Part shown: piece by piece, positions 2,407 through 25,639 of the stretch | Position numbering within the stretch: position 1 is the stretch's first letter | How the letters are laid out: every line of letters starts with the position of its first letter | Assembly: GCA_964434115.1 (NCBI GenBank) | Contig: CAYSSX010000009.1 | Location: forward strand, 19,992 to 83,991 | DNA from: an uncultured bacterium | GTDB lineage: Bacteria; Omnitrophota; Omnitrophia; Omnitrophales; Aquincolibacteriaceae | Length of the DNA: 64,000 nt | Direction: 5' to 3' | The notes under the pieces: model-generated | Databases searched by the model: none | The model's input: the letters and a program-made list of their open reading frames with translations, nothing else | Told to the model about the DNA's origin: nothing | Position numbers and translations under genes: made by a program

Positions 2407-3252
2407 ATGAACACGCTCAGCGTTATCATTCCCACTTACAACCGCCGCCCCGTCCTGGCCCGGGCACTCCGCTCGGTTTTGGACCAAAAACCGGCCCCGG
2501 ACGAAGTCCTGGTGGTGGATGACGGCTCCACGGACGGCACCCCGGAATGGCTGGCCCGGGAGTTCCCTTCCGTAATCCTGATTCGACAGGCCAATCAAGG
2601 CCCTGCCGCGGCGCGGAACCGGGGCATTGAAAAAGCTTCGGGAACCTGGCTGGCCTTTCTGGACTCGGATGACGAATGGCTGCCTGGCAAATTGAAATCC
2701 CAGTGGGATTTCTTTCATGCCCATCCTGAATACCGCATGGCCCAAACCGAAGAGCTCTGGATCCGGAATGGACAGCGTGTGAACCCTATGAAAAAGCATC
2801 AAAAGCACGGAGGCTGGATTTTTGACAAATGCCTGCCCCTTTGCCTGATCAGCCCTTCCGCGGTGATGCTGCAAAAAAGTCTTTTGGAAGAAACCGGCGT
2901 GTTTGATGAATCCTATCCGGCGTGCGAGGATTATGAACTTTGGCTGCGGATCACGGCGCGTTATCCGGTGGGGTTGATTGCAAGGCCCGGCATCAAAAAG
3001 TACGGCGGCCATGATGACCAGCGGTCGCGCGAGTTCCCGGCCATGGACCGTTTTCGCATCCGCGCCTTGATCAAAACCCTTGAAAGCGGACTCCTAAATT
3101 CGGAACAAACGCAAAGCGCACTGGCCATGCTCGCGGAAAAATCCTCGATTTTTTTCGCCGGCGCGGAAAAGCGGGATCCGCATGAAGAAGCGGAATCACT
3201 CAAGAAGAAATTGCATGAAATCAAAAACCGCTTTCCGGAATCCGCCCTGTGA
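2407..3252 (+). CDS. Family 2 glycosyltransferase (GT-A fold)
   Basis: VIIPTYNRRPVLARALRSVLDQ ... VVDDGSTDGT ... LDSDDEW (DxD) ... CEDYELWLR, the canonical GT2 architecture. Confidence 0.85.
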   Translation: MNTLSVIIPTYNRRPVLARALRSVLDQKPAPDEVLVVDDGSTDGTPEWLAREFPSVILIRQANQGPAAARNRGIEKASGTWLAFLDSDDEWLPGKLKSQWDFFHAHPEYRMAQTEELWIRNGQRVNPMKKHQKHGGWIFDKCLPLCLISPSAVMLQKSLLEETGVFDESYPACEDYELWLRITARYPVGLIARPGIKKYGGHDDQRSREFPAMDRFRIRALIKTLESGLLNSEQTQSALAMLAEKSSIFFAGAEKRDPHEEAESLKKKLHEIKNRFPESAL

Positions 3253-5739: not shown

Positions 5740-6859
5740 CATCTCTTCGCAGATTGCCTCGGGCGCCTGGGTTGAAGTCCGGCTTGACCGGATGGTGGAC
5801 AACCTCAAGGTGATGCGGAGTTTTCAAAGTTCTCAAACCAAGGTCATGGCCGTCGTCAAGGCCAATGCTTACGGCCACGGGCTCCTCGAAACCGCCCGCA
5901 GACTGGCACCTCACGTGGATTATCTGGGCGTCTCTTCCATCCGCGAAGTTCTCGAATTAAAAGAACACAAAATCCAGGCACCGGTTTTTCTTCTTTCCCG
6001 TCTTATGCCGCATGAAATTCCTCCGGTTCTGCTGGATGGTGTGACGCTCAGCGTTTCAAGTTATGAAGAGGCGGCCGCCATTTCCGAAGCCTCGCTCGCA
6101 AAAAACAAAAAGACACTCATTCACATTAAAATTGATACGGGCATGGGACGGCTCGGAATTCCTTTTGGCCAGGCCCTCAAAGTCATTGAAAAAACAGCGG
6201 AACTCCGTGGGGTTCTCATGGAAGGTCTTTTCACCCATTTCCCAACCGCGGAGCTTGAGGATGGCTTCACGGAAAATCAGGTCCGGGATTTCACCTTGCT
6301 CCTGCAGGCCATGGAGAAAAAAGGAATTGTTTTTCCTCTGCGCCACGCAGCGAACAGCGCAGGGTCTTTAAAAATCCGGACTCCGGTTTTTAACATGATC
6401 CGGCCGGGGCTGATGCTGTACGGCCTTTACCCCGATGACTCGCTTAGAAACACGGCGGAGGTTCTGCCTGTTTTGAGTTTAAAGAGCCGAATTATCTCTC
6501 TGAAACGCCTGCAAACAGGCCAATCCGTGGGGTATGGCCGCGATTTTACCGCAGAAAAGCCGTGCACGATCGGACTGCTCTCGATTGGTTACAGCCATGG
6601 TTATCCCTTTGCTGCCGCCAAACAGGCGAGCGTCCTTTATCAGGGACAAAAATTTCCGGTCGCGGGCCGTGTTTCGATGGACTACACGGCGTTTAATCTG
6701 GGCGATGCCCGCGCAAAAATCGGCGACGAAGTAACCCTGATCGGTGAAGACCTGGGACAAAGCATCCTTGCTGAAGATCTTGCCCGCTGGGCGAACACCA
6801 TTCCTTACGAAATCGTAACCGGACTCAGCGCTTTTCTGCCGCGCGTCACCACCGCCTGA
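5720..6859 (+). CDS. alr: Alanine racemase
   Basis: AVVKANAYGHG PLP-lysine motif. 379 aa, two-domain length typical of Alr. Confidence 0.9.
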   Translation: MPLPTADISSQIASGAWVEVRLDRMVDNLKVMRSFQSSQTKVMAVVKANAYGHGLLETARRLAPHVDYLGVSSIREVLELKEHKIQAPVFLLSRLMPHEIPPVLLDGVTLSVSSYEEAAAISEASLAKNKKTLIHIKIDTGMGRLGIPFGQALKVIEKTAELRGVLMEGLFTHFPTAELEDGFTENQVRDFTLLLQAMEKKGIVFPLRHAANSAGSLKIRTPVFNMIRPGLMLYGLYPDDSLRNTAEVLPVLSLKSRIISLKRLQTGQSVGYGRDFTAEKPCTIGLLSIGYSHGYPFAAAKQASVLYQGQKFPVAGRVSMDYTAFNLGDARAKIGDEVTLIGEDLGQSILAEDLARWANTIPYEIVTGLSAFLPRVTTA

Positions 6860-6860
6860 C

Positions 6861-7409
6861 ATGTTTGAAATTCAAATCGAAACTCACGAAGAACTTGTTT
6901 CCACCAACACCCTTCTCCTCCGCTACGCGGAAGAGGGACGCCCTGAAGGCCTTGTGGTGACTGCGGACTATCAATCGGAAGGGCGCGGCAAACCGGGAAG
7001 AACCTGGCTTTCCCCTTCCGGAAAAAATCTTCTATTTTCAATTCTTCTCAGACCCGAGATCCCGGTGAATCAAGCGCCGATCCTCACCCAGATCGCATGC
7101 CGCTCGGTCGCTGAGGCGATTAGAAAAATCTGCGGAATCACTCCCGAATTTAAACGTCCGAATGATTTGCTCGTGAACGGGAAAAAAATCTGCGGGATTT
7201 TAACGGAAGCTCTTTCAAGTCCGTCGCGCCTCAACGCCGTTGTGGTCGGTGTCGGGCTCAACGTCAACAGTTCCGCCGAAGAACTTCTTCCCACCGCAAC
7301 ATCGCTGATGCTTGAAACAAAAAAATCGTGGGACCGGGACCCGTTGCTTTTGGAAATTTTGGATCAATTCAAGAATGACTTGAAAGGTTTGTATGCTTCT
7401 TCTGTTTGA
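6861..7409 (+). CDS. birA: Biotin--[acetyl-CoA-carboxylase] ligase, class I (no N-terminal HTH)
   Basis: SEGRGKPGRTWLSP is the GRGRRGR-type biotin-binding loop. 182 aa. Sits directly upstream of coaX, the usual birA-coaX pairing. Confidence 0.85.
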   Translation: MFEIQIETHEELVSTNTLLLRYAEEGRPEGLVVTADYQSEGRGKPGRTWLSPSGKNLLFSILLRPEIPVNQAPILTQIACRSVAEAIRKICGITPEFKRPNDLLVNGKKICGILTEALSSPSRLNAVVVGVGLNVNSSAEELLPTATSLMLETKKSWDRDPLLLEILDQFKNDLKGLYASSV

Positions 7410-8145
7410 TGTCGGAAACACCTCCATTTCCTGCGGAAAAGTTGAAAAAGGGCGTTTTACCGCGTTAAAACCCTTCATTTCTAACGATATCCCAAAAAAT
7501 GTCGCTAAATTACTCAAAAGTGGAGCGACTAATAAGAATAATGTCGTTATTAGCTCTGTTGTCCCAGATATAACCCTTAAAATCAAAAATCGAGTTTCCC
7601 TTTTAAGGCTGGGGAAGACCTGGATTGCAGGAGAGGATTTACCCGTCAAAATTGATCATAAATACAAATCTTTAAATACGTTAGGAATGGACAGACGGGT
7701 TTGTATCTACGGCGCCCTCCGCCTTTACAGGCCGCCCTTCCTTATTTTGGATTACGGGACCGCGATTACTGCGGATTACGTAGACGCCAAAGGTGTTTTT
7801 CAGGGCGGCATGATTATTCCGGGTCCAGAACTCGCCTATCAGTCGCTTTTAAAGCGCGCCGCTTTACTTCCCAAAAAAGCACGCCTGCCAAAGCAAACCC
7901 CTCAGTTTCTGGGCCGATCAACCCTTGAATGCCTCCAAAGCGGCATTCTGCAAGGCTATGGCGCCATGACCGACGGGCTTGTGGAAAAGTTCCGGAAAAA
8001 ATTTGGCAAAAAGCTTCAAGTTATTGCCACGGGAGGGTTTGCGTCACAGCTTGCATCGCTTGTCACAAGTTTCGATCTTGTGGATTCTTCGCTTTGCCTA
8101 AAGTCGCTTAAGATCCTCTTTGAAGAACAGCACCCCCAGGGTTAA
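7393..8145 (+). CDS. coaX: Type III pantothenate kinase
   Basis: N-terminal LLLFDVGNTSI (ASKHA fold phosphate-1 motif). 250 aa. Follows birA. Confidence 0.85.
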   Translation: MLLLFDVGNTSISCGKVEKGRFTALKPFISNDIPKNVAKLLKSGATNKNNVVISSVVPDITLKIKNRVSLLRLGKTWIAGEDLPVKIDHKYKSLNTLGMDRRVCIYGALRLYRPPFLILDYGTAITADYVDAKGVFQGGMIIPGPELAYQSLLKRAALLPKKARLPKQTPQFLGRSTLECLQSGILQGYGAMTDGLVEKFRKKFGKKLQVIATGGFASQLASLVTSFDLVDSSLCLKSLKILFEEQHPQG

Positions 8146-8287: not shown

Positions 8288-9958
<1,671 letters not shown>

Positions 9959-10025
9959 TTAGCGCTTAGTTTTTGAATTTCATTTTCAAAATTGTCAAAA
10001 AGACAAATTTAATCAGGAGGTTGTT

Positions 10026-10316
10026 ATGAAAATTCGTCCCTTAGGTGACAGAGTGCTTGTGGAAATTTTGGAAGCCGAAGAAAAAACCAAAGGCGGGATT
10101 ATTCTTCCGGACACAGCCAAAGAAGAAAAGTCTGAAGGCAAGGTCATTTCCGTAGGATCGGGCAAGACGCTGGAATCCGGCAAGGTTCAGCCCATTGAAG
10201 TGAAAAAGGGCGACCGCGTGATTTTCGGCAAATGGGGCGGCGATGATCTTACGATCGAAGGCAAGAAGCACAAGATTCTGAAAGAAAGCGACCTCGTCGC
10301 GGTATACGAAGGTTAA
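10026..10316 (+). CDS. groES: Co-chaperonin GroES
   Basis: 96 aa. MKIRPLGDRVLVE...KGGIILPDTAKEK is a classic GroES. A strong RBS (AGGAGG) lies upstream. Confidence 0.95.
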   Translation: MKIRPLGDRVLVEILEAEEKTKGGIILPDTAKEEKSEGKVISVGSGKTLESGKVQPIEVKKGDRVIFGKWGGDDLTIEGKKHKILKESDLVAVYEG

Positions 10317-10395
10317 AACGTTCCGTTTTAACCGGAGTCCTGAAACTCTTGGGCTTCAACGCTTTTCACAGACTCGTTAACAGGAGAACTCTCAA

Positions 10396-12039
10396 ATGGC
10401 AAAACAACTTGTATTCTCGGAAGAAGCGAGACGGCGCCTGAAACGCGGCGTGGATATTCTCGCCAATACCGTTGGTGTAACGCTCGGACCGCGCGGAAGA
10501 AATGTCATTATCGACCGCAAGTTCGGCGCGCCGACAATCACCAAAGACGGCGTTTCTGTAGCCAAGGAAATCGAACTCAAGGACCCTTATGAAAACATGG
10601 GGGCCCAGATGGTTCGTGAAGTTTCTGAAAAGACTTCAGATGAAGCCGGCGATGGGACCACAACGGCTACAGTCCTTGCGCAGGCCATCATCAATGAAGG
10701 TTTGAAGAATGTCACCGCCGGGGCAAACCCCATGGCGCTCAAACGCGGCATTGATAAGGCAGCAGAAAAGGTTGTTGAAACCGTCAAGTCGCTTTCCAAA
10801 GCCGTCAAGAACAAGCAGGATATTGCAGCGGTCGGAAACATCAGCGCGAATTCCGACACCAGTATCGGCAACCTTCTTGCAGACGCCATTGATAAGGTCG
10901 GCAAAGACGGTGTGATCACGGTCGAAGAATCCAAAACACTCAAGACAGATCTTGAGCTTGTGGAGGGTATGCAGTTTGACCGCGGTTACATTTCCCCGTA
11001 TTTCGTCACGGATTCTGAGCGCATGGAAGTGCACTTCAAGAATCCCTACATTTTCCTTTATGAAAAGAAGATCAGCTCCATCAAGGACCTTGTGCCTGTG
11101 CTGGAAAAAGTGGCCCGTCTCGGCCGCCCTCTTCTGATCATCGCGGAAGATGTGGAAGCTGAAGCCCTTGCAACGCTTGTGGTCAACAAGATCCGCGGCA
11201 CGCTTCAGGTTGCGGCCGTGAAGGCCCCTGGTTTTGGAGACCGCCGCAAGGCCATGATGGAAGATATCGCCATCCTGACCAAAGGGCGCTTCATTTCCGA
11301 AGACCTCGGCATCAAGCTTGAAAATGTTGATACCGATGCCCTGGGTTCCGCCCAAAGCGTTGTGATCGATAAAGACAACACCACGATCATCGGCGGGGCC
11401 GGTTCTCAAAAGGACATTAAATCCCGCTGCGATCAAATTCGCGGCCAGCTTGAAAAGTCTGATTCCCAGTACGACCGTGAAAAATTCCAGGAACGCCTCG
11501 CGAAACTCGCGGGCGGCGTGGCCGTGATCAAGGTCGGAGCGGCGACGGAAATTGAAATGAAGGAAAAGAAGGCGCGCGTGGAAGACGCTCTTCATGCAAC
11601 GCGGGCCGCTGTTGAAGAAGGTATTGTCCCGGGCGGCGGTACAGCGCTTCTGCGCTCCATTGCCAGCCTGGCTTCGTTGAAGCTGAAGGGAGATGAGGCC
11701 ACGGGTGCGGATATTGTCCGCCGCGCTCTGGAAGAACCTGCCCGCCGCATCGCGAAGAATGCCGGCTTTGACGGTTCCGTCATCGTAAAAACCGTTTTGG
11801 AAAGCAAGGAAACCAGCTATGGTTTCAATGCCGACAAAGGGGATTTTGAAGATCTCGTGCAGTCCGGGATCATTGACCCTGCCAAGGTCGTGCGCACCGC
11901 GATCCAAAACGCGGCCAGCATTGCCGGTCTTTTCCTGACCACCGAATGCGTGGTTTCAGAAAAACCGAAGGATGAAGAGGAAGACGGCAAGAAAAAGAAA
12001 AAGCCGAGCTACGCTTCTTCCATGGGTGACGATTACTAG
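10396..12039 (+). CDS. groEL: Chaperonin GroEL, copy 2, with non-canonical charged C-terminal tail
   Basis: 547 aa with all GroEL motifs. C-terminus is [25 protein letters not shown] rather than GGM repeats. Confidence 0.95.
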
Positions 12040-12063
12040 AATCGCATCTGACTTAAAGCAAAA

Positions 12064-12097
12064 GGCCCTTCCGGAATTCCGGAAGGGCCTTTTTTTT
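12064..12097 (+). terminator. Rho-independent terminator after groEL copy 2
   Basis: GGCCCTTCCGG-aatt-CCGGAAGGGCC stem-loop followed by T8. Confidence 0.85.
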
Positions 12098-12177
12098 GCT
12101 CTGTCAGATTGTGGAGCCGGTTCTATGCGTCCCCTGAAGCCCCAATGGCTTCAGGATTCTGGACACAACATGACGTT

Positions 12178-12558
12178 CTATCGGTCATAGCGGTCGCGGT
12201 GATGCCGGAAAAGATCGCTGGTTTCCTTGACGGACATAAACTCCGCGTAAGGAACCACGCGTTTTCTTCCGCGGGGAATTTTACTGCTGCGGCGAAGCGG
12301 GTGACGGACAAGCCCCCCCACTTTATAAAGCGTGGTTTTGCCTTTACTGTCCATGTCCGTATAAATTTCATTCAGCCGGACCCCTTTTTTCATGGAAAGG
12401 ACTTCGGCTACAAAGGTTCCCTGCTGGGAAATAAAGGCGATAAAATCCACTTCATGCCCGGACAGATTGGCATATTGGCCGCTGGAACGGATATGGCGCA
12501 GAACACCCGTGGTCACGTCCACGACCATAATCAGCCTTTCGTCATCTGCTTCTGTCAT
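12178..12558 (-). CDS. Small PD-(D/E)xK-fold nuclease-like protein (Hjc/YraN-like topology), function unknown
   Basis: About 126 aa from ATG at 12558 (RBS GAGGT). ER...G.V.R...SSG then VDFIAF ... FVAEVLSMKK parallels the Hjc/YraN motifs E..., D-l-I-A and E-V-K, although the lysine is displaced. The basic Arg/Lys-rich C-terminal tail is consistent with nucleic-acid binding. Confidence 0.45.
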   Translation of the reverse strand: MTEADDERLIMVVDVTTGVLRHIRSSGQYANLSGHEVDFIAFISQQGTFVAEVLSMKKGVRLNEIYTDMDSKGKTTLYKVGGLVRHPLRRSSKIPRGRKRVVPYAEFMSVKETSDLFRHHRDRYDR

Positions 12559-12657
12559 TTTGACCTCACACCCATTCAAATGAAGTTTTCATGTTTTGAA
12601 ATTATAATTTGCGTATACTATACAGGTTTTTAAAGCTTGTCCGTAGCCGAATTTATT

Positions 12658-13527
12658 ATGCCTCTAAAAAAATCCCGGAAAAGAGCCGTGAAAAAAAAGT
12701 TTAAATTCACACCCAAATTTGGGCTTCTTCTTTTTTTGATCCTCACCCTGGGCATTCTTGTGTTGAACCGGGAAAACATTTCAGCCTGGGGCGGACATTC
12801 GAAGCCCAAGAAAAAAGCCCCGGTGGTTGAGAAAAACAAAATCGTATTCGTTATCGATGACATCGGTTACCACCTCCAGGAGGAGGTCCGGCTTACCAAG
12901 CTGGGAGACAAGGTCACCTACGCAATTCTTCCCCTGCTCCCCTATTCAAAATATTTCGGCAATCTGAGCAAGAAAACCGGGGCTGAGGTCATTCTGCATA
13001 TGCCGCTTGAGGCCATGGACGGCACGATCCCCGGGCGGGGCTTGATCACCCGCGCCATGCCGGCCAAGGAAATCCTCAAAATGGTGGACACGGATTTAAA
13101 TTCCGTCCCCAATCACGTGGGCTCGAACAATCACATGGGGTCGCTGGGAACTTCCGACCCCGCGCTGATGAAAATCATTCTGGAAGACATCAAGCGGCGG
13201 AATCTTTTCTACTTGGACAGTTTCACTTCTTCGGATTCGGTGGTCGTTCCCGTTGCTCAGGAGCTCGGGGTCCCGGTGCTGAAGCGGGACGTTTTTCTTG
13301 ATAACATTGATGCCAAGCAGGCCATCCGCGATCAGATCAAGCAGCTTAAAAGCATTTCCCGTAAAAAAGGTTACGCCATCGGTATCGGCCATTACCGCGC
13401 CAACACCCTCGAAGTTCTAATTCAGGATATTCCGGTTATGGAGCAGGAGGGGTTTGAGATGATCTCTCTGCAGGAACTTCTCGATTATCTGGGCACCCGG
13501 AAATCTTCGCCCGCACACGCTGCCTAG
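12658..13527 (+). CDS. Divergent polysaccharide deacetylase family protein (YibQ-like), membrane anchored
   Basis: Basic N-terminus plus a TM helix, then IVFVIDDIGY ... ILPLLPYS ... HMPLEAMDG ... NHMGS, typical of the YibQ / divergent 4-His polysaccharide deacetylase family. The ORF track offers an alternative TTG start at 12637. Confidence 0.7.
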   Translation: MPLKKSRKRAVKKKFKFTPKFGLLLFLILTLGILVLNRENISAWGGHSKPKKKAPVVEKNKIVFVIDDIGYHLQEEVRLTKLGDKVTYAILPLLPYSKYFGNLSKKTGAEVILHMPLEAMDGTIPGRGLITRAMPAKEILKMVDTDLNSVPNHVGSNNHMGSLGTSDPALMKIILEDIKRRNLFYLDSFTSSDSVVVPVAQELGVPVLKRDVFLDNIDAKQAIRDQIKQLKSISRKKGYAIGIGHYRANTLEVLIQDIPVMEQEGFEMISLQELLDYLGTRKSSPAHAA

Positions 13528-15362: not shown

Positions 15363-15534
15363 GCCGTCCCTGTTGGAGATTCCTGTTCAGGAAGTTCCAA
15401 AGAGTTAATGCGCCTAAAAGGTACCCGGTAAACGGCTTTTTTTCAAGGGGTGATTCTAATATTTTTTAATATCTCTGATCCCCTTATTCATAGCGGGTTT
15501 GGCGTTATTAAAAGGGGTTTAAAAAGAGGTTTTG

Positions 15535-16050
15535 CTAACGGTGGAGATGGGTCTCAAAAACCCCGTCATTAAGGGCAAGCCCGATCACACCTTCCATAAC
15601 GGGGTACATTACGACCTGATTCGTCCGCTCCAACGCCTCCGCAATCCCAGGCACAAAACCATCATCAAAAGCCACGTACTCAATCCGCGACTCATCTTCG
15701 ACTTTCTTCTCAATCAGCTTTTTGAACTGATAAAGCTCGCGGTGGGTCTCTTTCATAAAAATAATCCGGGACCGTTTAAGTTTTTTGGCCAGGCTCTGAA
15801 CCTTGAGCGTGGTGACTTGCCCGCAGTCGATCCAGATATCCGGAACCTGCTCTCCCGGCTGCAGAAGCACCAGGTCAGGCTTGTAATGCATCCCGATATC
15901 GACTTCGACCTTCAACTCGGGGTCATAAAAAAGCATATAGGCCAAAAGCTTCAGCACCACGTGTTCGCGCCGTTCACTCACGGCTTTGACCAGAATCAGT
16001 TTCTTCTTGGTCTTTGCAAGCTGGATTTCAAAACTAAACTTCTCAATCAT
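15535..16050 (-). CDS. yaeQ: YaeQ family protein (predicted restriction-endonuclease-like fold)
   Basis: 171 aa. VLKLLAYMLFYDP and IWIDCGQ correspond to the YaeQ MMVRLLAFALH and WIEVGQP regions, and the length fits the family. Confidence 0.55.
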   Translation of the reverse strand: MIEKFSFEIQLAKTKKKLILVKAVSERREHVVLKLLAYMLFYDPELKVEVDIGMHYKPDLVLLQPGEQVPDIWIDCGQVTTLKVQSLAKKLKRSRIIFMKETHRELYQFKKLIEKKVEDESRIEYVAFDDGFVPGIAEALERTNQVVMYPVMEGVIGLALNDGVFETHLHR

Positions 16051-16149
16051 GCCTGCCTCGCGTCACCTTGGTTAACCCTGAAGAATTTTGTAAGCATACG
16101 GGGGTTTTGCGGTACCGACAAGGTTTTTGTCTGCCCGTGCAGCATCCGG

Positions 16150-16178
16150 TTGACATCCCTTTCTTTATTGCCTATCCT
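16150..16178 (+). promoter_or_regulatory. Sigma-70-type promoter of the glycosyltransferase operon (TTGACA-N17-TATCCT)
   Basis: Perfect -35 hexamer with a 17-nt spacer and a plausible -10, about 50 nt upstream of ATG 16228. Confidence 0.5.
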
Positions 16179-16227
16179 GAGTTTCAATTTTCGCGGCCAC
16201 CCCTTCCGGCTGGAGAGATTACACGGA

Positions 16228-17025
16228 ATGTCGACCTTCCAGGATCCTGTAAAAAAAGAATGCCCTCTCGCAATCCTTACGCTGTTTAGCGGTCAGCAGT
16301 CTTTACTGGACCCTTTTTTTGAAGCTTTAAACCGACTCGAAAAACCCTCTGGGACAGAATTCTTTGCGGTGGACAACAGCCGTGATGAGGCCTTTCACCG
16401 GGAACTCTTGAAGCACCACCCCAGCCCTGTCCGCTTTCATCCGCAGCTGTCCCTTTATTCCGGCTCCCCTTATTCCAGAGAATCTCAAATCCGGAAAGCG
16501 GAGCACTGCGCAATGTTGTACGCCTTTTCAAAGGCCTTCATCAAAAGCAGGGACCTCTTGATTCTGGAGCACGACATTCTGCCTCCCGCAAATGCCCTTG
16601 TGCGTCTTCAGGAAACCCGCGTCCGAAAAAAAGCTGACTTTGTTTCCGGCACCGTGATCTCAAGAATCACAGCCCAGTTTTTAGCCTGGCGGATCAGCGG
16701 GGGAAATTTCGAAAACTGGCCAAGGCATGTCTGGATTTCAAGAAGTCCCAAAAGGGTCATGGCCACGGGCTTCGGCTTTCTCCTGCTCCGGAATGAACTC
16801 TTTCAAAAGATGCCCCTTGAAGCAAAAAAAATCTCCCGCCCTTTTTGGGGATGCGACCTCAATGCCGGGGCTTGGGCTTATGAACAGGGGCTGCGGTGGT
16901 TTATCGATGGGCGGGTTCGCTGCAAACACATAGGCTCGGATTTACAGCCGGCCGAGCTCGGAAGCTTTTCCAGCGTTAAGGCCGGCGCCATGCTCAATCT
17001 TCAAAAGAGCGTGCACCGCCTATGA
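16228..17025 (+). CDS. GT-associated protein, paralogous to the inter-domain region of the downstream 1083-aa glycosyltransferase
   Basis: In-frame ATG with GGAGAG RBS. The upstream part of the 497-aa track ORF overlaps yaeQ antisense and is low-complexity, so it is rejected. CDLNAGAWAYEQGLRWFIDG resembles ELCLGAYAHKKGFRWFTGG of the next gene. The stop overlaps the next start (ATGA). Confidence 0.6.
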   Translation: MSTFQDPVKKECPLAILTLFSGQQSLLDPFFEALNRLEKPSGTEFFAVDNSRDEAFHRELLKHHPSPVRFHPQLSLYSGSPYSRESQIRKAEHCAMLYAFSKAFIKSRDLLILEHDILPPANALVRLQETRVRKKADFVSGTVISRITAQFLAWRISGGNFENWPRHVWISRSPKRVMATGFGFLLLRNELFQKMPLEAKKISRPFWGCDLNAGAWAYEQGLRWFIDGRVRCKHIGSDLQPAELGSFSSVKAGAMLNLQKSVHRL

Positions 17026-20000
17026 TTTCCGCGTCTTCTATAAAAGGAACTGCGGTCATTGTCACATGCCGCAATTACGGCCGGTATCTCGCTCAATGCC
17101 TGGAAAGTCTCTTCATTCAAACCGTTCCTTTTGATGACATTCTGGTTGTGGATGACGGCTCCACGGATGCCACCGCCGAGGTATGCTGGCGCTACGCTTC
17201 GCAGGGGGTTCGTTATGAACGCACCGATTTAGGCGAGCAGAATGCCGCCCGCAATCACGGCCTTCTGAAAACCCGTCATGAGTTTGTTGTTTTCGTGGAT
17301 GCCGATGACTGGCTCGCCCACAACTACCATGAAAAAATGCGTGCGGCGCTTGAAAAAACACAGGCCGGGTTTGCTTACTGCGGCGCTCACGTCATTAGAG
17401 ACGGTGCTGCCGGCGAGTGGTTTCCCGGAAGAATGCACCCGATGAGGCCTTTTGATTTTTATGACCTCTGGCGGGCAAACACCATCCTGCTTCCCGTGAT
17501 GCTGCGTAGAAGCGCCTGGCCTTCCCGTCTTGCCTCCCTCGGCTTTGAAGGTCCGGACGGCAAACGGTTTGGAGAAGACTGGGCTTTGTGGCTTTCGATT
17601 CTTCACAGGGGATGGAACGCCATTCAGGTTCCCGAAAGGCTGTCCTTTTACCGCTTTCACTCAGGCAACACGTCACGGACCGTCGTTTCAAACCGGCCGC
17701 TGGAGGCCGCGGCCAAATGGGGTGTCCGCAAACAGTTTCTGGTTTATGACCTGTCCGTGATTCTTTTGATGAGTGATGATTCCCGCTTGAATGCCGAAAT
17801 GCTGGATTCCATCACGCAATCGGAGCTTCCTGGGCACACTCAAATTTTTACGGTTTACAGCTCACCCGGGCCTCACCCTTCAAAATGGGGACGCCATTGG
17901 CTTCACCCTCTCTTCTGCCCCCTGCCGGAGGCTTCGCCGGTCCGCGACACATGGCTGCGCGAGGCTCTGGAATCGGCCCGCCGCTGTGCCCGCGGAAAAG
18001 AAATCCTCGTCGTTATAAAAATTCCTCTGCCCGCCAATAGTTTGACACGTTTCTTGACGGAAAAATTATCCACGCGAGCGGATTTCTTTTCGGCCCGGAT
18101 CTCGTCTGGCCACCCCAGCTCCGTCATGGCTTGGCGGGCAGTCAAAGGGAATCCTGAAAAAGGCGCTTACTCTGTGCCGGTGATCCGTCGTCCGCGGCGA
18201 GTTTTTGCCGCGGCCCTGGATTTAGTTTTGATCAGCGCGGAAGCCTTTCACGATCCTGATCTTTTCTCCTGCGCGGGGCAGAAAACATCTTATAGCCCTC
18301 TGGAGTTGTGTTTAGGCGCTTATGCGCACAAAAAAGGGTTCCGCTGGTTCACCGGAGGCAGCCTGCGGGCCAGAAGATTTCAAGAAATAACGGCGCCTGA
18401 AAAAATGAAACGGCTCCGCGAATTCTCGGATTGGCCAAAGGTTTCCCTTGTGATTCCTGTCTTGAACGGAGAAAAAACACTTCCCGATTTATTGCGAAGT
18501 CTGGAATACCTTGATTACCCTAAGGAACTCTTGGAAGTCCTGGTTGTGGATAATGGCTCCTCGGACAACACGGCGGCCATCGCCCAATCTTACCAAGGGG
18601 TCCGTTTTTTCCGGGAACCGCGGAAAGGATCCTACGCGGCCCGCAACCGGGGGATCAAAGAAAGCATTCATGACTTCATCGCTTTCGTGGATTCAGACTG
18701 TACCGTCACCCCTCCATGGCTCAAAGAGCTCACCGCCGCGATCACTGCGGATGCTGCCTGTGGAGCTGTTGCCGGCGACAATTTTTCCATCCGTCCGGAA
18801 AGCCGCCTTTCACAAATAGAAAGGGCTGCCGGGTTGTTCCGGAATTACCGCGGCTCCTCCCGGATGCCCGCCTATGCAATCACGATGAATGCCCTTTACC
18901 GGCGGAGCGTTTTTAAAGACGTGGGGATGTTTGACGAATCCGTATTTTCGGGAGCTGACACCGAAATGTGCTGGCGCATGCAGGCTCAGAGCTCCTGGAA
19001 ACTTCTTATCTTAAACCGGAAAGCCTGGGTGACTCACAAAGATCCTGTAAGTCTGGTCTCTCTTGCTCGGCGCTATTGGCGCATTGGAGGCGGCCATGAA
19101 GCCCTGTTCAACAAATACCCCGGATATGTGAATTCTCTTTATTTCTGGATGCCGGGGAGTTTCCCGGAGGTTTTTTTACAGTCTCTGAAAAATCTCACCG
19201 TGGGTTTTCTTTTCAACAAATCAAAACTGTCTTCCCTGGAAATTTTTTTATCCGCATTTCGCAGCCTTGTTCTCAAGGCAAGCGTGATTTATCACACACG
19301 GATCCGTGAGAAAAAAAATGCCTCCCGCGTTCCCTCGGCAATCCAAATCTATCTGAGCCGGGAGCCTCTTACGCCCGCAGGTAAAAGATTCTGCCATCTC
19401 GCGGATAAGGCCTCGGAGGCCTCTCCTTGCATCCATGCCGACTTTGTTCAGGACTCCCGTTACAACAAAATCGTGCTTCTGAGCTTCCTGACGGGGGCTA
19501 CAACCCTTTGGAGATGGCCGCATAATTTATTTTCAACCGGGATCTGGAGAATTCCGGGATTGAGCGCGGAACAAAATCTCCGCTTTCATGCCGGAAGAAT
19601 TTTAAAAAGCCTCCGGGCCTCTAAAGAAACTCCCGTTGAGTTATCCGGAGATCTCGATTTTGAATCGCTGAAAAGCTGGCAGCGGGCTTTAGGCATCGCA
19701 AGAACACGGCTCACACCCAAAAACACTTTTCTGGGTGCCGCAGCGGTTTCTTTTCCCGCTGCGGGCTGCGTCGTAACGCAAAGCGCCGGGATTTTGGACG
19801 CACTATTCTACAGGGATTTATCGCTCCATTCTTTATGGCCCATCGTCATTGCCGGTGTTTTCTCTCCCTCTGAAAGAGAAGCTCTGGAGGCTTTGACCTG
19901 GAACGCGTCCAATCTTTTCATCCTGAACACAAGGACTCAGGAAGAGGCTCGGGCTCTGGGGCAAGCGAAACTCGCGATCAACATTTTCGCCTGGCGCGAA

Positions 20001-20273
20001 CACCTTCCAAAATCCTGTGACGTCTTTGAAGCTGCAGACAAAGCAGCGCGGCTCCCACAGATCCATATTGAACCCAACGCTTACCGCGTGGAGGAAGGCG
20101 GCCGCTTTTTACAGTTTCAAAACAAGGAGGAGGCCATGCGCTGGATTTTGGCATGGCAAAAATTCCCGGGATGGGATTGGACACTTTTTTGGCGTGGTCA
20201 TCAATCTCCCGGAAGCGCCCCCGAATCCGAACCGCTCCCCCAAAACCCTCTCTCCCTGGACCCCTCCTCTTAA
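17022..20273 (+). CDS. Multidomain glycosyltransferase with two GT2 (GT-A) domains plus two uncharacterised domains
   Basis: GT2 domain 1 is at residues 1-230 (AVIVTCRNYGRYL...VVDDGSTD...FVDADDW). GT2 domain 2 is at about 470-700 (SLVIPVLNGEKTL...VVDNGSSD...FVDSDCTV). The linker domain is paralogous to the upstream gene. The roughly 380-aa C-terminal domain is unknown. Confidence 0.85.
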   Translation: MISASSIKGTAVIVTCRNYGRYLAQCLESLFIQTVPFDDILVVDDGSTDATAEVCWRYASQGVRYERTDLGEQNAARNHGLLKTRHEFVVFVDADDWLAHNYHEKMRAALEKTQAGFAYCGAHVIRDGAAGEWFPGRMHPMRPFDFYDLWRANTILLPVMLRRSAWPSRLASLGFEGPDGKRFGEDWALWLSILHRGWNAIQVPERLSFYRFHSGNTSRTVVSNRPLEAAAKWGVRKQFLVYDLSVILLMSDDSRLNAEMLDSITQSELPGHTQIFTVYSSPGPHPSKWGRHWLHPLFCPLPEASPVRDTWLREALESARRCARGKEILVVIKIPLPANSLTRFLTEKLSTRADFFSARISSGHPSSVMAWRAVKGNPEKGAYSVPVIRRPRRVFAAALDLVLISAEAFHDPDLFSCAGQKTSYSPLELCLGAYAHKKGFRWFTGGSLRARRFQEITAPEKMKRLREFSDWPKVSLVIPVLNGEKTLPDLLRSLEYLDYPKELLEVLVVDNGSSDNTAAIAQSYQGVRFFREPRKGSYAARNRGIKESIHDFIAFVDSDCTVTPPWLKELTAAITADAACGAVAGDNFSIRPESRLSQIERAAGLFRNYRGSSRMPAYAITMNALYRRSVFKDVGMFDESVFSGADTEMCWRMQAQSSWKLLILNRKAWVTHKDPVSLVSLARRYWRIGGGHEALFNKYPGYVNSLYFWMPGSFPEVFLQSLKNLTVGFLFNKSKLSSLEIFLSAFRSLVLKASVIYHTRIREKKNASRVPSAIQIYLSREPLTPAGKRFCHLADKASEASPCIHADFVQDSRYNKIVLLSFLTGATTLWRWPHNLFSTGIWRIPGLSAEQNLRFHAGRILKSLRASKETPVELSGDLDFESLKSWQRALGIARTRLTPKNTFLGAAAVSFPAAGCVVTQSAGILDALFYRDLSLHSLWPIVIAGVFSPSEREALEALTWNASNLFILNTRTQEEARALGQAKLAINIFAWREHLPKSCDVFEAADKAARLPQIHIEPNAYRVEEGGRFLQFQNKEEAMRWILAWQKFPGWDWTLFWRGHQSPGSAPESEPLPQNPLSLDPSS

Positions 20274-20349: not shown

Positions 20350-22035
20350 ATGATTTATCCAAAACTTTTTACAACGCTCAAGACTTATTCTTTTAAAGCC
20401 TTCACAGCAGACTTTGTTGCCGGGTTTATTGTAGGCATTGTGGCGCTCCCCCTTGCGATTGCTTTTGCCATAGCCTCGGGAGTCTCTCCTGACCGGGGCC
20501 TTGTGACCGCTGTCATCGCCGGATTTATCATTTCATTCCTCGGCGGAAGCCGTGTTCAGATCGGGGGCCCGACAGGCGCTTTTGTTGTCATCGTTTACTC
20601 GATCATTCAAAAGCACGGCGTCGACGGTCTAATCATTGCCAACATCATGGCGGGGGTCATTCTCATCCTCATGGGGGCCGCAAGATTCGGGGGGGTCATC
20701 AAGTTCATTCCCTATCCTGTCACCGTGGGATTCACAAGCGGCATTGCCGTCATTATTTTCACATCTCAAATTAAAGACCTCTTCGGACTAGAGATGGGAA
20801 CAGTTCCCGCCGAATTCGTTGAAAAGCTGCAAGCCTACGGCGAGCACCTTCACACCCTGGACCCCGTTGCAACAGCGCTCAGCGCCGCCTGTCTGCTGAT
20901 TCTTATTTTCTGGAAACGCGTCTCTCAAAAAATTCCCGGTTCACTCATCGTACTGGCTTTCGCGACAGCCGCAACGGCCCTTCTCCACCTTCCGGTTGAA
21001 ACCATCGGAAGCCGTTTCGGTTCGATCCCCAGCACCTTACCCGCTCCGGTTTTTCCTGCGGTGACCTTCGAGAGAATCCGTGAACTCATTCCTGCCGCAA
21101 CCACGATCGCTATTTTGGCAGGTATTGAGTCGCTGCTTTCCGCGGTCATCGCCGATGGCATGATCGGGGGCAAACACCGCTCCAACATGGAACTCATCGC
21201 CCAAGGGATCGCAAACGTCATCACACCGCTTTTCGGCGGCATTCCCGCCACCGGCGCGATCGCCCGCACATCGACCAACATTCAAAACGGCGGAAGAACG
21301 CCTGTCGCGGGGATGGTTCACGCTTTAACGCTCCTGGTCATTATGCTTTTTTTCGGGAAATGGGCGGTGCACATTCCGCTCTGCGCGCTCGCGGCCATTC
21401 TTGTCATCGTGGCTTATCACATGAGCGAATGGCGCTCTTTCAAAATGATCCTTAAAAGCCCCAAAAGCGATGTCATCGTGCTTTTGACCACTTTCGGCCT
21501 CACCGTTTTAGTGGACCTGACGGTAGCGATTGAAGTCGGAATGGTACTTGCGTCCTTTCTTTTTATGCACCGCATGTCACTTGTCACCAATGTCGATGTT
21601 GTCACGCGCGATTTTTCAGACGATGACGATGAAGAAAAGGACGACCCCAACGCGATTTCTACAAAATCCGTTCCCGAAGGTGTCGAGGTTTATGAAATCA
21701 ACGGCCCATTCTTTTTTGGAGCCGCGTACAAATTTCTCGAGTCTCTCAACGCCACGGGCATCAAAAACCCGAGGGTCCGTATCCTCCGGATGCGCAATGT
21801 GGGTGCTATTGACGCAACCGGGATGAGTGTCCTGAAGCAGGTTTTCCAGGCCTCGCAAAAGAAAAATATCGCCTTTGTCCTTTCGGGTATCAAAGCCCAG
21901 CCACGCCGGGCGCTTGAAAACTCAGGCTTACTGGACCTTATTGGCCCTCAAAACGTCCTGGCCAACATTGACGAGGCCCTGAACCGGGCCCGGGAAATAC
22001 TGGAATCGGGCTCCGGAATACCTTCAAAAACCTGA
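20350..22035 (+). CDS. SulP family inorganic anion transporter with C-terminal STAS domain
   Basis: Multi-TM N-terminal domain with the SulP signature region, and a C-terminal STAS fold ([16 protein letters not shown]...). 561 aa. Confidence 0.9.
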
Positions 22036-22126: not shown

Positions 22127-25100
22127 ATGGACCTGTTAAAAACAATCGGCTTCTCCTTGGACTCCGCGGACGCCCAGCCGCAGGATGATAAAGTTGTTCA
22201 ATACATCAACCTGAAACTGGCGGCGCTGGGCTACCCGGTCTTCGGCAATAAAGGCGATACGGAATTTCTCGAAATCGCGAAACCCCTGCTCAATAATCAC
22301 CGCGAAAAAAATCGTCTTCTTTCCAACTATCTTTGTCCGGCAGATAAACGCATTCAGGATTTTCTCGATGATTACCTGAAAGACGTTGCGACCAAAACAC
22401 CCGCGCGCCTGCCCGGGAACTCCTTGATTCTTGACCGGCATGGCCTCGCGCGGATGATGTCGCTTCCCCCTGACCGCGATAGTTTTGTTTCCGACATCAT
22501 CAGTTCCTACAGAATCAAGCAGGGGGTGCTTCACAACCCGCGCAACGACCGCCGCACCACTCAAGGCGTTTTTCACGTGGCCGAGGGCGGCTTCCCCATT
22601 CCTGATGACAAAAAAGCAGTCCCTAAAAGTGTTTTCAGAAATCTTTTGATCGCGGCTTTCCAGCCGACCCTGGACCTGCTTCGTCTGCCTTTCACCTCTT
22701 CTCAGGAAAATCAGGCTGAGCTTTTTGTGTCTTTACTGCTGCGTCCTATCGTCTGCCCCGCGGTGCCCGGGTACATGCCGGAAAAGTCGATGGAAATACG
22801 CTTTATTGCGCCCGGCAACATGGTGAGCAATCTTGACTTCGTCGAGTCAATTTTTGGCAATGCCGGAGATCCTTTTTTGCCCGAAAATGATGCGGCTCTC
22901 GACGTGGATCATTGGACCGGACACACCGGCTGCGTCATCCTCGCCCCTCATCTGGCACGCCTCAAGAAAAAGGACCTTGGCCTGCCCCATTACGATCAGG
23001 CCACGGAACGCCAGCGCCGGGACGGGATGTGCTGGAAAAAAGAAGACGAGTTTTACAATGACGGCGGGGCTTTCAAAGTCACATGCCGGGACGGCCGCGG
23101 CGTTATTGTCACCATCATCGCGGATAATTATTTCGGGTACTGCAAAAAGGAAGTCAAAACTCAAATCAGCTACTCCGCGAATCTCTACGGCCTTTGCGAG
23201 GAAGAGCACGCCGGGGGCGCCATTGCCTTCCCAAGCTATGACCTTGGAGAAGAGTTCGCGCTTGATGAAGTGCTGCTGAAAAGCGACGCGAGTTTTGAAG
23301 ATATTTCCCGCCTTTACGGCGACATGATGGACGTCAAGCCGGAAGGCTATGGCATTGATAAAACTTATGCGGATATCATTTATGTCCCGGGAGACGCGAA
23401 GTTCGACCTTCCTAAGAAGATTGTTTCCTGGATCCGGAACGGTAAAGAAGAAACCATCCAGCTTATCGCTTCAAACACCTACGTGCTTCCATCAGGCTAC
23501 AAAATCCACGCAAAAAAGCATACCGGCGGACACAACTGGATTCTTGTCGGAACCGTCGCGGAAGGCACGCTCTGCCACAAACCCTGCACGGTTTCGGGCG
23601 GAGGAAAATCGGAAATTTCAAAATCCATTGTCGATGCCATGATTCAAGGGCCTGTTTTTACGGCCAATCTTCACCAGGACATGAATGAGATTGCCGGCAT
23701 TCTGGCCCGCGATTTCAGCACCCGTTTCCGTACCAAGCCCAATCTGGACAGGCCCAGCCGGTCTATTTTGAGCCCCAAACGCTCCCTGGGCTCTGTCATC
23801 AAACTTTTTACGCCTGCCTCAGAATTCACCGACGAATACAACGCCTGGCTCGAATCACTGCCGCCTCATATCAAAGACATGATCTTTGTGGTGAAACGTT
23901 ATTACAAACCCGACTGGCAGGATAAGTGGCGCGAACACTTCAATGTCGACATGATTAATGGGTACCTCGGGCATGAGCTCAAGTACGGCAGCCGGAAACT
24001 CGTTGCCAATTACCTCCGCGTGGGCCGGGAAAAAGACGGGTCCTGGCGTATTTACAAAGTCCGGCAGGATTTTAGCCCGGCCCAAAAGGTTCAGGCCGAG
24101 GATGACATTACGGCTTCTGTCATCGTGTCCCGCCAGCTTCTCAAACACCTGAATCCGGAATACGACAACCCGAGCGTCAAATTGGTGATCAACTCCGAAT
24201 ACCGTCTTTTCCAGCGCCCGGATGATGCGATTCACCGCGGTTATGACAAACAGGCCGAAGCCGATCTGTCCAGCCCCGGCTCCTTTCTTTCCAATTACGA
24301 ACCTTTGACACGCTATGACGCCAAAGAACTTATCCTGGACGCTATGAGTTTTGACCTTTACACGGACCCCGTGAAAGAAATGGTTCAGAAATTCGCGGGC
24401 GAATCCAGCGGCACTTACTTTGTGGTTCCTTCTCATCCACGAATGGTGGACGGAAAGCCTTCAAAAAATCCGCGCTACCTTCAGAACCGTCCGGACCTCA
24501 TGAACCCGCGTCAAAAATATCTGGCGGAAGTCGGCACCCGCCTGATGCGCAAAGTCCCTTTGAATGAACCCGTGGTTTTTCCGGTCAATGAAGTTCTTCC
24601 CGGAAGACGCAACAATCCTCCGGACAAAAAGGCCGGCATTCCTCCTCTTGCGGTCTATAACCCGATCCATTACCAGGAACTGCCCGAATTGTTCATGGAT
24701 TTCATCTGCAGCGTCACCGGCAAATCCCCTTCAACTACCGGGTTTGGTTCAGAAGGTGCTTTAACCAAAGGGCCGTTTAACGCGCTGTGGCCGATTGTGG
24801 ATTTAAACAATGCCCTTGTCTCTTACATGGTCACCGGCTATCACGGCTTCACGACCGCCGCAGGCTACATCGGCCCGAATATCCGGGTTGATCACGACAT
24901 CAGCCTTCTGATTCCTGAAATCTGGTCCCGCATGACGGTTCAGGAAAGAAGTCCCGAGTTCCTCATTAAAAACGGCTATTTGGAAAAGCTGGAAGATTTT
25001 CATCATAACGGCCAGGAAATTCCGGCCGCGTTTCTCGGCTACCGGATCACTTTGCGTTTTGTGCAGGCTTTTCTTGGAAGAATTTTCAACAATCCGAACG

Positions 25101-25639
25101 CGGTCTTTAGCCTGGAAATGCTGAAGCCTGAAAAGCAGGATCTTCAGATGTTTGTGGACGGCATTCTGAACATCGTGGCAACCCAGAAAAGAGTTGCGGA
25201 AAATTACTTTAAAGACGGCAGTATTGAAGCGGCATGCCCTCCTCTTAAAGCCCTCCTCCACATCATGGTTCACGGACAATACGAAGGAAAAGACCTGACC
25301 CATTCCGATATTCGGGCCATGTTTACACGCGAGTACCTGCTTCAAAGCGATTGGTACCGCGAGCGCCTCAAGACCCGCCAGGACCGTGAAACGGTTTTGT
25401 GGGAACGGCACACCAAGTATTTGAGGGATTACCTCAAGAAGGAAAGTCATGCTGAAGCCATTGACCAGCTTCAGCTGAAGGAACGTCTCAAATCCGCAAA
25501 GCACGAATACGAACGGGTCACTTCACCCGCTTACCTCGAGTCCCTGAACGGAACCATTGGCGCCGATCCTTTTTACGGCCAGCTCAAACCATTTCCTTCT
25601 CAGCAGGAAATGGCGGGAAGCAGCCTCTCCAGCCGCTAG
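22127..25639 (+). CDS. Very large (1170 aa) soluble protein of unknown function; candidate PPi-type phosphoenolpyruvate carboxykinase-like enzyme (hypothesis)
   Basis: Single uninterrupted ORF 91 nt downstream of the SulP gene with no intervening terminator. It carries a P-loop-like CTVSGGGKSEISK segment reminiscent of PEPCK kinase-1a motifs. There are no ATP-grasp, biotin, TPP or repeat signatures. The size matches the roughly 1150-aa PPi-PEPCK family. The functional call is inference only. Confidence 0.85.
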   Translation: MDLLKTIGFSLDSADAQPQDDKVVQYINLKLAALGYPVFGNKGDTEFLEIAKPLLNNHREKNRLLSNYLCPADKRIQDFLDDYLKDVATKTPARLPGNSLILDRHGLARMMSLPPDRDSFVSDIISSYRIKQGVLHNPRNDRRTTQGVFHVAEGGFPIPDDKKAVPKSVFRNLLIAAFQPTLDLLRLPFTSSQENQAELFVSLLLRPIVCPAVPGYMPEKSMEIRFIAPGNMVSNLDFVESIFGNAGDPFLPENDAALDVDHWTGHTGCVILAPHLARLKKKDLGLPHYDQATERQRRDGMCWKKEDEFYNDGGAFKVTCRDGRGVIVTIIADNYFGYCKKEVKTQISYSANLYGLCEEEHAGGAIAFPSYDLGEEFALDEVLLKSDASFEDISRLYGDMMDVKPEGYGIDKTYADIIYVPGDAKFDLPKKIVSWIRNGKEETIQLIASNTYVLPSGYKIHAKKHTGGHNWILVGTVAEGTLCHKPCTVSGGGKSEISKSIVDAMIQGPVFTANLHQDMNEIAGILARDFSTRFRTKPNLDRPSRSILSPKRSLGSVIKLFTPASEFTDEYNAWLESLPPHIKDMIFVVKRYYKPDWQDKWREHFNVDMINGYLGHELKYGSRKLVANYLRVGREKDGSWRIYKVRQDFSPAQKVQAEDDITASVIVSRQLLKHLNPEYDNPSVKLVINSEYRLFQRPDDAIHRGYDKQAEADLSSPGSFLSNYEPLTRYDAKELILDAMSFDLYTDPVKEMVQKFAGESSGTYFVVPSHPRMVDGKPSKNPRYLQNRPDLMNPRQKYLAEVGTRLMRKVPLNEPVVFPVNEVLPGRRNNPPDKKAGIPPLAVYNPIHYQELPELFMDFICSVTGKSPSTTGFGSEGALTKGPFNALWPIVDLNNALVSYMVTGYHGFTTAAGYIGPNIRVDHDISLLIPEIWSRMTVQERSPEFLIKNGYLEKLEDFHHNGQEIPAAFLGYRITLRFVQAFLGRIFNNPNAVFSLEMLKPEKQDLQMFVDGILNIVATQKRVAENYFKDGSIEAACPPLKALLHIMVHGQYEGKDLTHSDIRAMFTREYLLQSDWYRERLKTRQDRETVLWERHTKYLRDYLKKESHAEAIDQLQLKERLKSAKHEYERVTSPAYLESLNGTIGADPFYGQLKPFPSQQEMAGSSLSSR

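Follow-up and report, generated by a model that had tools for sequence, protein, structure and literature searches.

Gene pair A-B and its domain organization

The stretch of DNA analyzed here, 64,000 nucleotides (nt) of contig CAYSSX010000009.1 from an uncultured bacterium of the Omnitrophota and hereafter called the window, carries on its plus strand two overlapping genes, A and B, whose products are predicted to comprise five modules related to glycosyltransferases (GT). Gene A is predicted to encode a free-standing, divergent enzyme with a GT-A fold. Gene B is predicted to encode two glycosyltransferase family 2 (GT2) domains, GT2a and GT2b, a degenerate copy of the gene A product between them (domain X) and a family-specific C-terminal domain (domain Y). 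The features of the pair are as follows (aa, amino acids; ORF, open reading frame).

16228..17025, plus strand: gene A, a 265-aa ORF with an ATG start, predicted to encode a divergent GT-A glycosyltransferase with the motifs D49-N50-S51, E114-H115-D116, G208-C209-D210 and H234
17022..20273, plus strand: gene B, a 1083-aa ORF
17022..17025, plus strand: ATGA overlap of the A stop codon and the B start codon, read directly from the sequence
17049..17735, plus strand: GT2a, B residues ~10-238, a canonical GT2 domain of the GT-A type that carries VVDDGS, FVDADDW and GEDW, matched by Pfam PF00535 and PF13641
17751..18407, plus strand: X, B residues 244-462, a predicted degenerate GT-A-like domain, paralogous to A by BLASTP and hhalign
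18420..19166, plus strand: GT2b, B residues ~467-715, of the Glyco_tranf_2_3/MftF-like clade, with VVDNGS, FVDSDC, SGxD and RRxWRIGxGH
19167..19337, plus strand: linker between GT2b and Y, B residues ~716-772, amphipathic-looking and with no predicted transmembrane segment
19338..20201, plus strand: Y, B residues ~773-1060, a family-specific domain modeled as two Rossmann-like halves and followed by a predicted disordered tail to residue 1083

As an earlier note on this DNA had proposed, the ATGA overlap at 17022-17025 is predicted to couple the translation of B to that of A, and an overlap of the gene pair is also present in relatives. Neither protein contains a stretch hydrophobic enough for a transmembrane helix (maximum 19-residue hydropathy mean of 1.42 on the Kyte-Doolittle scale) and both are net basic; they are predicted to be soluble or membrane-peripheral.

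Sequence searches did not place the product of gene A in any established family: there was no match at E<=0.01 in Pfam, NCBIfam or the PDB, the last searched both by phmmer and by hmmsearch with a family profile, and sub-threshold matches to PF00535 were found in only five of 18 sequences (13 A-family proteins and five X domains), the best with an E-value of 0.059. Structures were modeled with AlphaFold for single domains, namely A and the Y region of B. For A, AlphaFold2 was given an alignment of 18 rows that combined A proteins with X domains, and the resulting model has a predicted local distance difference test score (pLDDT) of 90.3 and a predicted template modeling score (pTM) of 0.88. 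Foldseek reported 570 PDB matches to this model at E<=1e-3, and all the described matches among the 50 listed are glycosyltransferases or GT-like proteins, nearly all of them GT-A enzymes. The best is COLGALT1 (E 3.5e-11; TMq 0.61), and the others listed include Mimivirus R699, LH3, GnT-I, RmlT, TarP, ppGalNAc-T2 and POMGNT1. By this model, the product of gene A has a GT-A fold, i.e., a single Rossmann-like alpha/beta/alpha domain.

The conserved residues of A fit such a fold. In an alignment of 11 A-family members, N50-S51, E114, D116, D210 and H234 are invariant, and the motifs vary across the family as D/N-N-S, E-[H/D]-D and G-[C/H]-D, followed by the late His; EDD replaces EHD in two members (P0131 and P0132). 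The model places DNS after strand 2 (E44-49), EHD after strand 4 (E109-113), D210 where helix 209-219 begins and H234 in a late strand, which are the predicted canonical GT-A sites for nucleotide binding, the DxD motif, the catalytic base and the late metal ligand, respectively. E114-H115-D116 is a candidate DxD variant and D210 a candidate catalytic base. An hhalign comparison of A with GT2b, itself sub-threshold (E 0.07), places each motif of A opposite its GT2b counterpart (VVDNGS, FVDSDC, SGSD and the late His), and the comparison with GT2a gave no signal. Based on its fold and motifs, A is probably an active, divergent GT-A transferase.

Domain X of B is related to A over its full extent. 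In a BLASTP comparison, A residues 14-244 align to B residues 244-462 with 26% identity across 237 aa (E 6e-17), and hhalign of an A profile (six proteins) with an X profile (seven domains) gave a probability of 99.5% and an E-value of 2.2e-22. The similarity is far beyond that expected by chance and identifies X as a true paralog of A, so that the paralogy between the linker domain and the upstream gene product suggested in the earlier note is retained on proper alignment. Common to A and X are AD..S, AWR, KRV.A and RWF..G. DNS, E[HD]D, GCD and the late His are all absent from X; at the position of EHD, the X domain of the window has IKI and other X domains have SDR, GDK or SDH. In seven X domains, invariance is limited to Y, Q, W, A, G, S, A, P, P and R, none of which is acidic, and X has no sequence relative in Pfam, NCBIfam or the PDB. 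Because all four motifs of A have been lost, X is read as a degenerate copy of A and a probably inactive pseudo-glycosyltransferase. The GT-A model of A and the motif loss in X together support the guess in the earlier note that X is a degenerate GT-A domain without its DxD.

The two remaining GT-A modules are more conventional. PF00535 matches B in two stretches, residues ~10-207 and 475-710 (E 3.3e-57; score 193.5 bits, cutoff 23.3); in GT2b, the best PF00535 stretch covers residues 475-634 and that of PF13632 residues 553-710. In an alignment of seven members (B and six relatives), D44/D45, D93/D95/D96 and E185/D186 of GT2a and D510/N511/S513, D557/D559 and D646 of GT2b are invariant. The NCBIfam matches of GT2a are generic GT2 families (PRK10073, TuaG and PglI-like), all under cutoff, and the best NCBIfam match of GT2b is the mycofactocin glycosyltransferase MftF (TIGR03965; residues 468-707; E 1.4e-54), whose 185.7 bits are under the curated cutoff of 280. 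Both modules are predicted to be ordinary GT2 members with a conserved DxD and a downstream acidic base motif, which agrees with the initial description of B as a di-GT2 protein with intact DxD motifs (FVDADDW and FVDSDCTV). In one distant Omnitrophota lineage, that of locus L011, Pfam detects GT2 only in the first domain of the 961-aa B-like protein (9812-12697); GT2b may be degenerate in this lineage, whose locus also encodes separate GT2 proteins and one of the GT2-GT2-GT4 type.

Between GT2b and Y, the linker reaches its maximum 19-residue Kyte-Doolittle mean of 1.41 at residue 738, which is under the usual transmembrane threshold. The AlphaFold model covers only residues 760-772 of the linker, predicted as a short helix (762-766) followed by coil.

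Domain Y has no match in Pfam (including PF00534 and PF13692) and no sequence match in NCBIfam or the PDB. Its AlphaFold model, built on a 16-row alignment (pLDDT 83.5; pTM 0.78), consists of two beta/alpha/beta halves, and nearly all of the 40 PDB matches found by Foldseek at E<=1e-3 are GT-B enzymes, at TM values of only 0.2-0.3. The earlier note had described a C-terminal domain of ~380 aa without recognizable motif. The lack of a sequence-family match stands; the domain itself, at ~290-310 aa after a linker of ~55 aa, is smaller, and given the GT-B-type fold matches of its model, Y is not featureless.

In a rival reading, Y, and possibly X, is catalytically active. B and A would then hold four or five active sites, and Y would be a divergent GT4-like GT-B transferase that adds a sugar or a non-sugar substituent. 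Such a role fits the GT-B transferases among the fold matches of Y and its residues R859, D926 and N964, which are largely conserved across 16 Y domains. Distant Y domains also carry a segment, LPE....G[LM]PV[VI], that hhalign sets in register with GLPVV, the nucleotide-binding segment in the true GT4 domain of the 987-aa GT2-GT2-GT4 protein of L011. However, this alignment is not significant (probability 3%; E 0.014), the segment has been lost in the lineage of the window, and Trp, Gly and Pro predominate among the residues most conserved across the 16 domains (G825, W830, W832, W842, W886, W939, P940, L965, P1049 and W1051), with no EX7E-like pair and no Gly-rich loop in the conservation table. 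Most X domains retain one Asp at the DxD position (i.e., those with SDR, GDK or SDH), but the X domain of the window has no acidic residue there and no acidic residue is invariant in X. We therefore consider additional active sites in Y or X to be unlikely. As the conserved residues of Y form no recognizable GT-B catalytic set, its role is most likely non-catalytic, in binding, regulation or oligomerization.

Distribution and genomic context

Proteins of this type are rare. In a word-indexed search of 5.8 billion proteins, B had only six full-length relatives (P0002-P0007; 30-42% identity), all its other matches being to single GT2 domains, and A had relatives in 12 clusters at 90% identity. 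With a Y profile built from seven sequences, HMMER was run exhaustively against 1.84 billion representatives and detected 18 proteins: four known family members, nine further full-length proteins with GT2 N-terminal to Y, six of which show two or three GT2 stretches, and five others that include three short fragments (P0140, P0145 and P0146) and a protein of 6458 aa (P0139). In the four known family members and in the ten full-length matches that were scanned or aligned, Y is at the C-terminus of proteins of the GT2-X-GT2-Y type. In P0139, 26 separate stretches each match only positions 209-260 of the Y profile; this may be a repeat protein with chance or compositional similarity to Y. Scanning one genome per GTDB species (185,579 species) for the motif pattern of A yielded three loci, two of which are in metagenome-assembled genomes of Candidatus Omnitrophota. 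The A-B pair is conserved in Omnitrophota, and we found no literature specific to the family in this group.

The start of gene A was examined together with the region upstream of it, where one further feature was found.

16150..16178, plus strand: promoter-like site, TTGACA and TATCCT with a 17-nt spacer, ~50 nt 5' of gene A

This site has 10 of 12 consensus matches in a consensus scan, which is weak evidence only, and lies inside the 177-nt gap between A and a divergent YaeQ gene (15535-16050, minus strand; Pfam E 2.5e-12). A Shine-Dalgarno-like GGAGAG is found ~9 nt 5' of the ATG of A. The closest homolog of A (P0121; 70% identity) is likewise 265 aa long, and homologs begin at the corresponding ATG. 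A 497-aa ORF with a TTG start (15532-17025) was considered as the true upstream gene and rejected, its 5' part lying opposite the minus-strand YaeQ gene. Given this overlap of the longer ORF and the 265-aa length of P0121, the ATG at 16228 is taken as the real start of A.

The lineage of the window comprises the window itself and the loci L001/L002, L007/L008, L009, L010 and L013. Its gene order is GroEL, a PF04748 deacetylase, DUF6178 (minus strand), YaeQ (minus strand), sometimes AmtB/P-II, A, B, SulP-STAS, a pyrophosphate (PPi)-type phosphoenolpyruvate carboxykinase (PEPCK) and MgtE (minus strand), of which the short contigs L009 and L010 display only part. The SulP/STAS anion permease gene (20350-22035 in the window, plus strand) is directly 3' of B at every locus of this lineage. 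Conserved downstream of it is a 1170-aa protein (22127-25639, plus strand) for which the Pfam copy searched gave no match. PF26300 (PEPCK_PPi_lobe_2) is assigned to the orthologs from L001, L007 and L009, the ortholog from L013 is 94% identical, and the protein is assigned as a PPi-dependent PEPCK because of PF26300 in the orthologs. SulP and PEPCK are set apart from B by gaps, and a promoter-like site follows B. The only other GT2 gene in the window (2407-3252) is unrelated, and there is no further transferase cluster.

Several other neighbors of the pair were observed. An AmtB/P-II (GlnK) gene pair lies between YaeQ and A in L001 (5253-6939), L007 (4511-6202) and L009 (167-1852) and is absent from the window (16051-16227) and L013, where YaeQ and A are thus directly divergent. 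The PF04748 "divergent polysaccharide deacetylase" (YibQ-like; 12637-13527, plus strand) is 2.7 kb 5' of A and holds the same position in relatives. A poly-N-acetylglucosamine-like system formed by this deacetylase and a PgaC-like GT2b was considered and set aside, because B has no membrane domain and two opposite-strand genes separate the deacetylase from A. Further upstream are tandem Cpn60/GroEL paralogs (8303-9958 and 10396-12039, plus strand; 551 and 547 aa), found here in a small-genome Omnitrophota lineage, and a 96-aa ORF between them (10026-10316) could be GroES. In clusters built at 90% identity, the GroEL of the window groups with a protein named as GroEL of Candidatus Omnitrophota, which places the window in an Omnitrophota genome.

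In more distant lineages, the neighborhoods are entirely different from those of the window lineage, and the pairing itself is retained. An A-type domain precedes the B-type gene in eight of nine lineages, either overlapping it, within ~30 nt of it or two genes upstream (L012). A is free-standing in the window, L001, L007, L009, L010, L011, L012 and L013, is fused to a rhamnosyltransferase-like GT2 in L005 and to a GT2a-like domain in L015. L012 encodes an additional GT2a-X protein, and P0007 and its relatives have an additional N-terminal GT2-X' unit. At the usual position of A, L003 has instead a gene for a 507-aa multi-pass membrane protein with no Pfam match (6481-8004), which overlaps the start of the gene for the 1472-aa, B-like P0007.

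Genes for ATP-binding cassette (ABC) transporters of the ABC-2 type recur in these distant lineages. In four of the five (L003, L011/L014, L012 and L015), the B-like gene has a gene for an ABC_tran ATPase directly beside it, and in three of them (L011/L014, L012 and L015) an ABC2_membrane gene is next to the ATPase gene. The earlier note had suggested that synteny with polysaccharide export genes be sought, and it is found in these distant relatives and not in the window. Sulfotransferase genes flank A in L012 (8145-9008 and 9759-10583) and L015 (~1209-1907); together with the SulP gene beside B, this may reflect a link to glycan sulfation or may be a coincidence. L012 also begins with the end (1-727) of an 8315-aa ORF, one of the very long Omnitrophota proteins, which is ~8 kb upstream of A (9001-9762), beyond an Mrp-type antiporter operon and a sulfotransferase gene.

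Proposed function and alternatives

With modest confidence, we favor the reading that A and B form a soluble complex of several modules that assembles a heteroglycan in the ABC-transporter-dependent manner. This reading is based on the three predicted GT-A sites accompanied by two degenerate modules, the soluble and basic nature of both proteins, the coupled partner gene and the ABC-2 exporters of relatives. In ABC-transporter-dependent O-polysaccharide assembly, polymerase components are variably split among single- and multi-module proteins that work in complexes (PMC11231755). Each of the three competent-looking modules, A (E-H-D), GT2a (DADD) and GT2b (DSD), would probably form one linkage, and the product would be a hetero-oligosaccharide or a polysaccharide repeat built on a lipid-linked acceptor at the inner membrane face. 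X, which keeps structural and acceptor-side residues of the A family, would most likely serve as a scaffold or docking surface, possibly as a pseudo-homodimer with A, or as an acceptor-holding site. This proposal follows the precedent of COLGALT1, an enzyme with two GT-A domains, one of them non-catalytic and structural (PMC12003778). Y would most likely act as a module for binding, regulation or oligomerization, and the ATGA coupling would match the amount of B to that of A. Judging from the distant relatives, the product would probably leave the cell through an ABC-2 (Wzm/Wzt-type) transporter whose genes lie elsewhere in the genome, and it may be sulfated, which is a lead only.

Several observations weigh against this proposal. 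The 64-kb window contains no gene for an ABC-2 transporter, an initiating phosphoglycosyl transferase or sugar-nucleotide synthesis, and tblastn of the window for Wzm/Wzt, ABC2_membrane, sulfotransferases and the L003 membrane protein found none. The window neighbors of A and B are housekeeping genes, and the association with ABC-2 genes is seen only in relatives that share 30-36% identity. Neither a coiled-coil ruler nor a terminator module was found, and the motif loss in X is no strict proof of inactivity.

A different acceptor is conceivable. A and B could glycosylate a protein or a small molecule, for instance a very large surface protein of Omnitrophota or, in the manner of SunS or MftF, a peptide or a cofactor. 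Protein-modifying enzymes (COLGALT1, LH3, ppGalNAc-T2 and POMGNT1) are the best structural matches of A, MftF is the best NCBIfam match of GT2b and the 8315-aa ORF lies upstream of A in L012. The rank of Foldseek matches among GT-A folds at 10-15% identity is, however, uninformative on the acceptor, and the wall-teichoic-acid enzymes RmlT and TarP are listed as well. Moreover, three to five transferase-like modules and an ABC-2 exporter fit the assembly of a glycan polymer better, and we regard protein or small-molecule glycosylation as quite improbable. For mycofactocin or for ribosomally synthesized and post-translationally modified peptides, such a role was rejected because of the sub-cutoff MftF score and the lack of mft genes nearby.

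The housekeeping context could also indicate a product that stays inside the cell, i.e., a glycan, a glycolipid or a compatible solute, with SulP, PEPCK and AmtB/P-II as signs of a metabolic role. The window lineage indeed keeps the order A-B-SulP-PEPCK with no exporter nearby, A and B are both soluble as judged from hydropathy, and GT2b has a weak match to glucosyl-3-phosphoglycerate synthase (E 1e-13). Compatible-solute synthases, however, are small single-domain enzymes; the gaps and the promoter-like site after B separate SulP and PEPCK from it; and the neighbors in distant lineages are wholly different, with ABC-2 exporters adjacent. We consider an intracellular product very unlikely.

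Finally, that B is a processive, membrane-embedded synthase, which polymerizes and translocates its product like class I hyaluronan synthase, BcsA or PgaC, is highly improbable: GT2b belongs to the Glyco_tranf_2_3 clade, has sub-threshold matches to PgaC/IcaA (E 7e-27), NodC and BcsA and has RRxWRIGxGH near the position of QxxRW, but W and R are transposed (RRxWRIG vs. Q(Q/R)xRW), the scores are far under cutoff (94 vs. 422 for PgaC, 55 vs. 550 for NodC and 22 vs. 992 for BcsA), no transmembrane segment is predicted and a separate ABC-2 exporter adjoins the gene in distant relatives. Of the processive or dual-linkage synthase suggested in the earlier note, the processive half is hence unlikely given the lack of transmembrane segments, and a dual- or multi-linkage polymerase remains what we infer to be the best reading of A and B.

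A bolder version of the proposed assembly complex can be formulated, which we think rather unlikely to hold as a whole: A and X would define a new glycosyltransferase family, in which the dead X recruits the live A by pseudo-homodimerization, the Trp-rich, GT-B-derived Y binds or measures the growing chain, and the product is a lineage-specific, possibly sulfated surface polysaccharide of Omnitrophota. In this version, such a surface may be relevant to the life attached to hosts that has been proposed for these nanobacteria. If the favored model itself is right, the pair would be a clean bacterial case of a pseudo-enzyme that arose by duplication of a glycosyltransferase, with the dead X fused into the polymerase and the live A kept as its coupled partner, and it would have parallels among eukaryotes, COLGALT1 with its non-catalytic GT-A domain being one. 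That the A/X and Y families are invisible to sequence libraries points to annotation gaps in the envelope biogenesis of Omnitrophota. The practical impact is small, as the organisms are uncultured and the folds familiar.

Comparison with known systems

B falls outside the KfoC/PmHAS, class I synthase and MftF families, whose defining features were looked for and are lacking in B. MftF (TIGR03965) and the TIGR04283 family are the best family-level matches of GT2b, but the MftF match spans only one of the five modules. KfoC, the chondroitin polymerase of E. coli K4 (PDB 2z86/2z87), and the heparosan and hyaluronan synthases of Pasteurella (PDB 8vh7) resemble B in having two DxD GT-A domains in one soluble chain, and they make an alternating polymer with two linkages. 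KfoC nevertheless matches B only at residues 474-577, with 42 bits, and heparosan synthase B with 33 bits, i.e., over the N-terminal half of one GT2 domain only. In contrast to A-B, these enzymes lack a pseudo-GT-A spacer, a GT-B-like tail and a free-standing partner that is a paralog. The earlier note had held that the architecture is not a described synthase type, and this view is strengthened by the generic nature of the 42-bit GT2 match to KfoC and by the lack of Pfam, NCBIfam and PDB relatives of A/X and Y.

A was also compared with the human collagen galactosyltransferase COLGALT1/GLT25D1 and the accessory domain of LH3 (PDB 9evj, 8zgc and 6fxr). COLGALT1 is the best structural match of A and combines in one chain two GT-A domains of which one is non-catalytic. 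The identity between A and COLGALT1 is only 12-14%, and COLGALT1 is a eukaryotic, protein-modifying enzyme with no separate paralogous subunit. Its non-catalytic domain still binds UDP-Gal and Ca2+ (PMC12003778), whereas X has lost its nucleotide and metal motifs.

The closest known systems are the ABC-dependent polymerases of O-polysaccharides and capsules, which include the Klebsiella O4/O7 enzymes, WbdA, WbbB and KpsC (PMC11231755, PMC9587256, PMC10148158). As proposed for A and B, these are soluble, peripheral multi-module chains that form complexes with smaller partner transferases, and in distant relatives of A-B the genes adjoin those for Wzm/Wzt-type ABC-2 exporters, although none is in the window. 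Beyond generic GT2 domains, the two groups share no sequence relation, and the module set of A-B (GT2, pseudo-GT-A, GT2 and GT-B-like, with no ruler or terminator found) is outside the arrangements described for ABC-dependent polymerases. The combination of modules in A-B is thus undescribed, and its A/X and Y components are unrecognized by sequence libraries; it is built from familiar folds.

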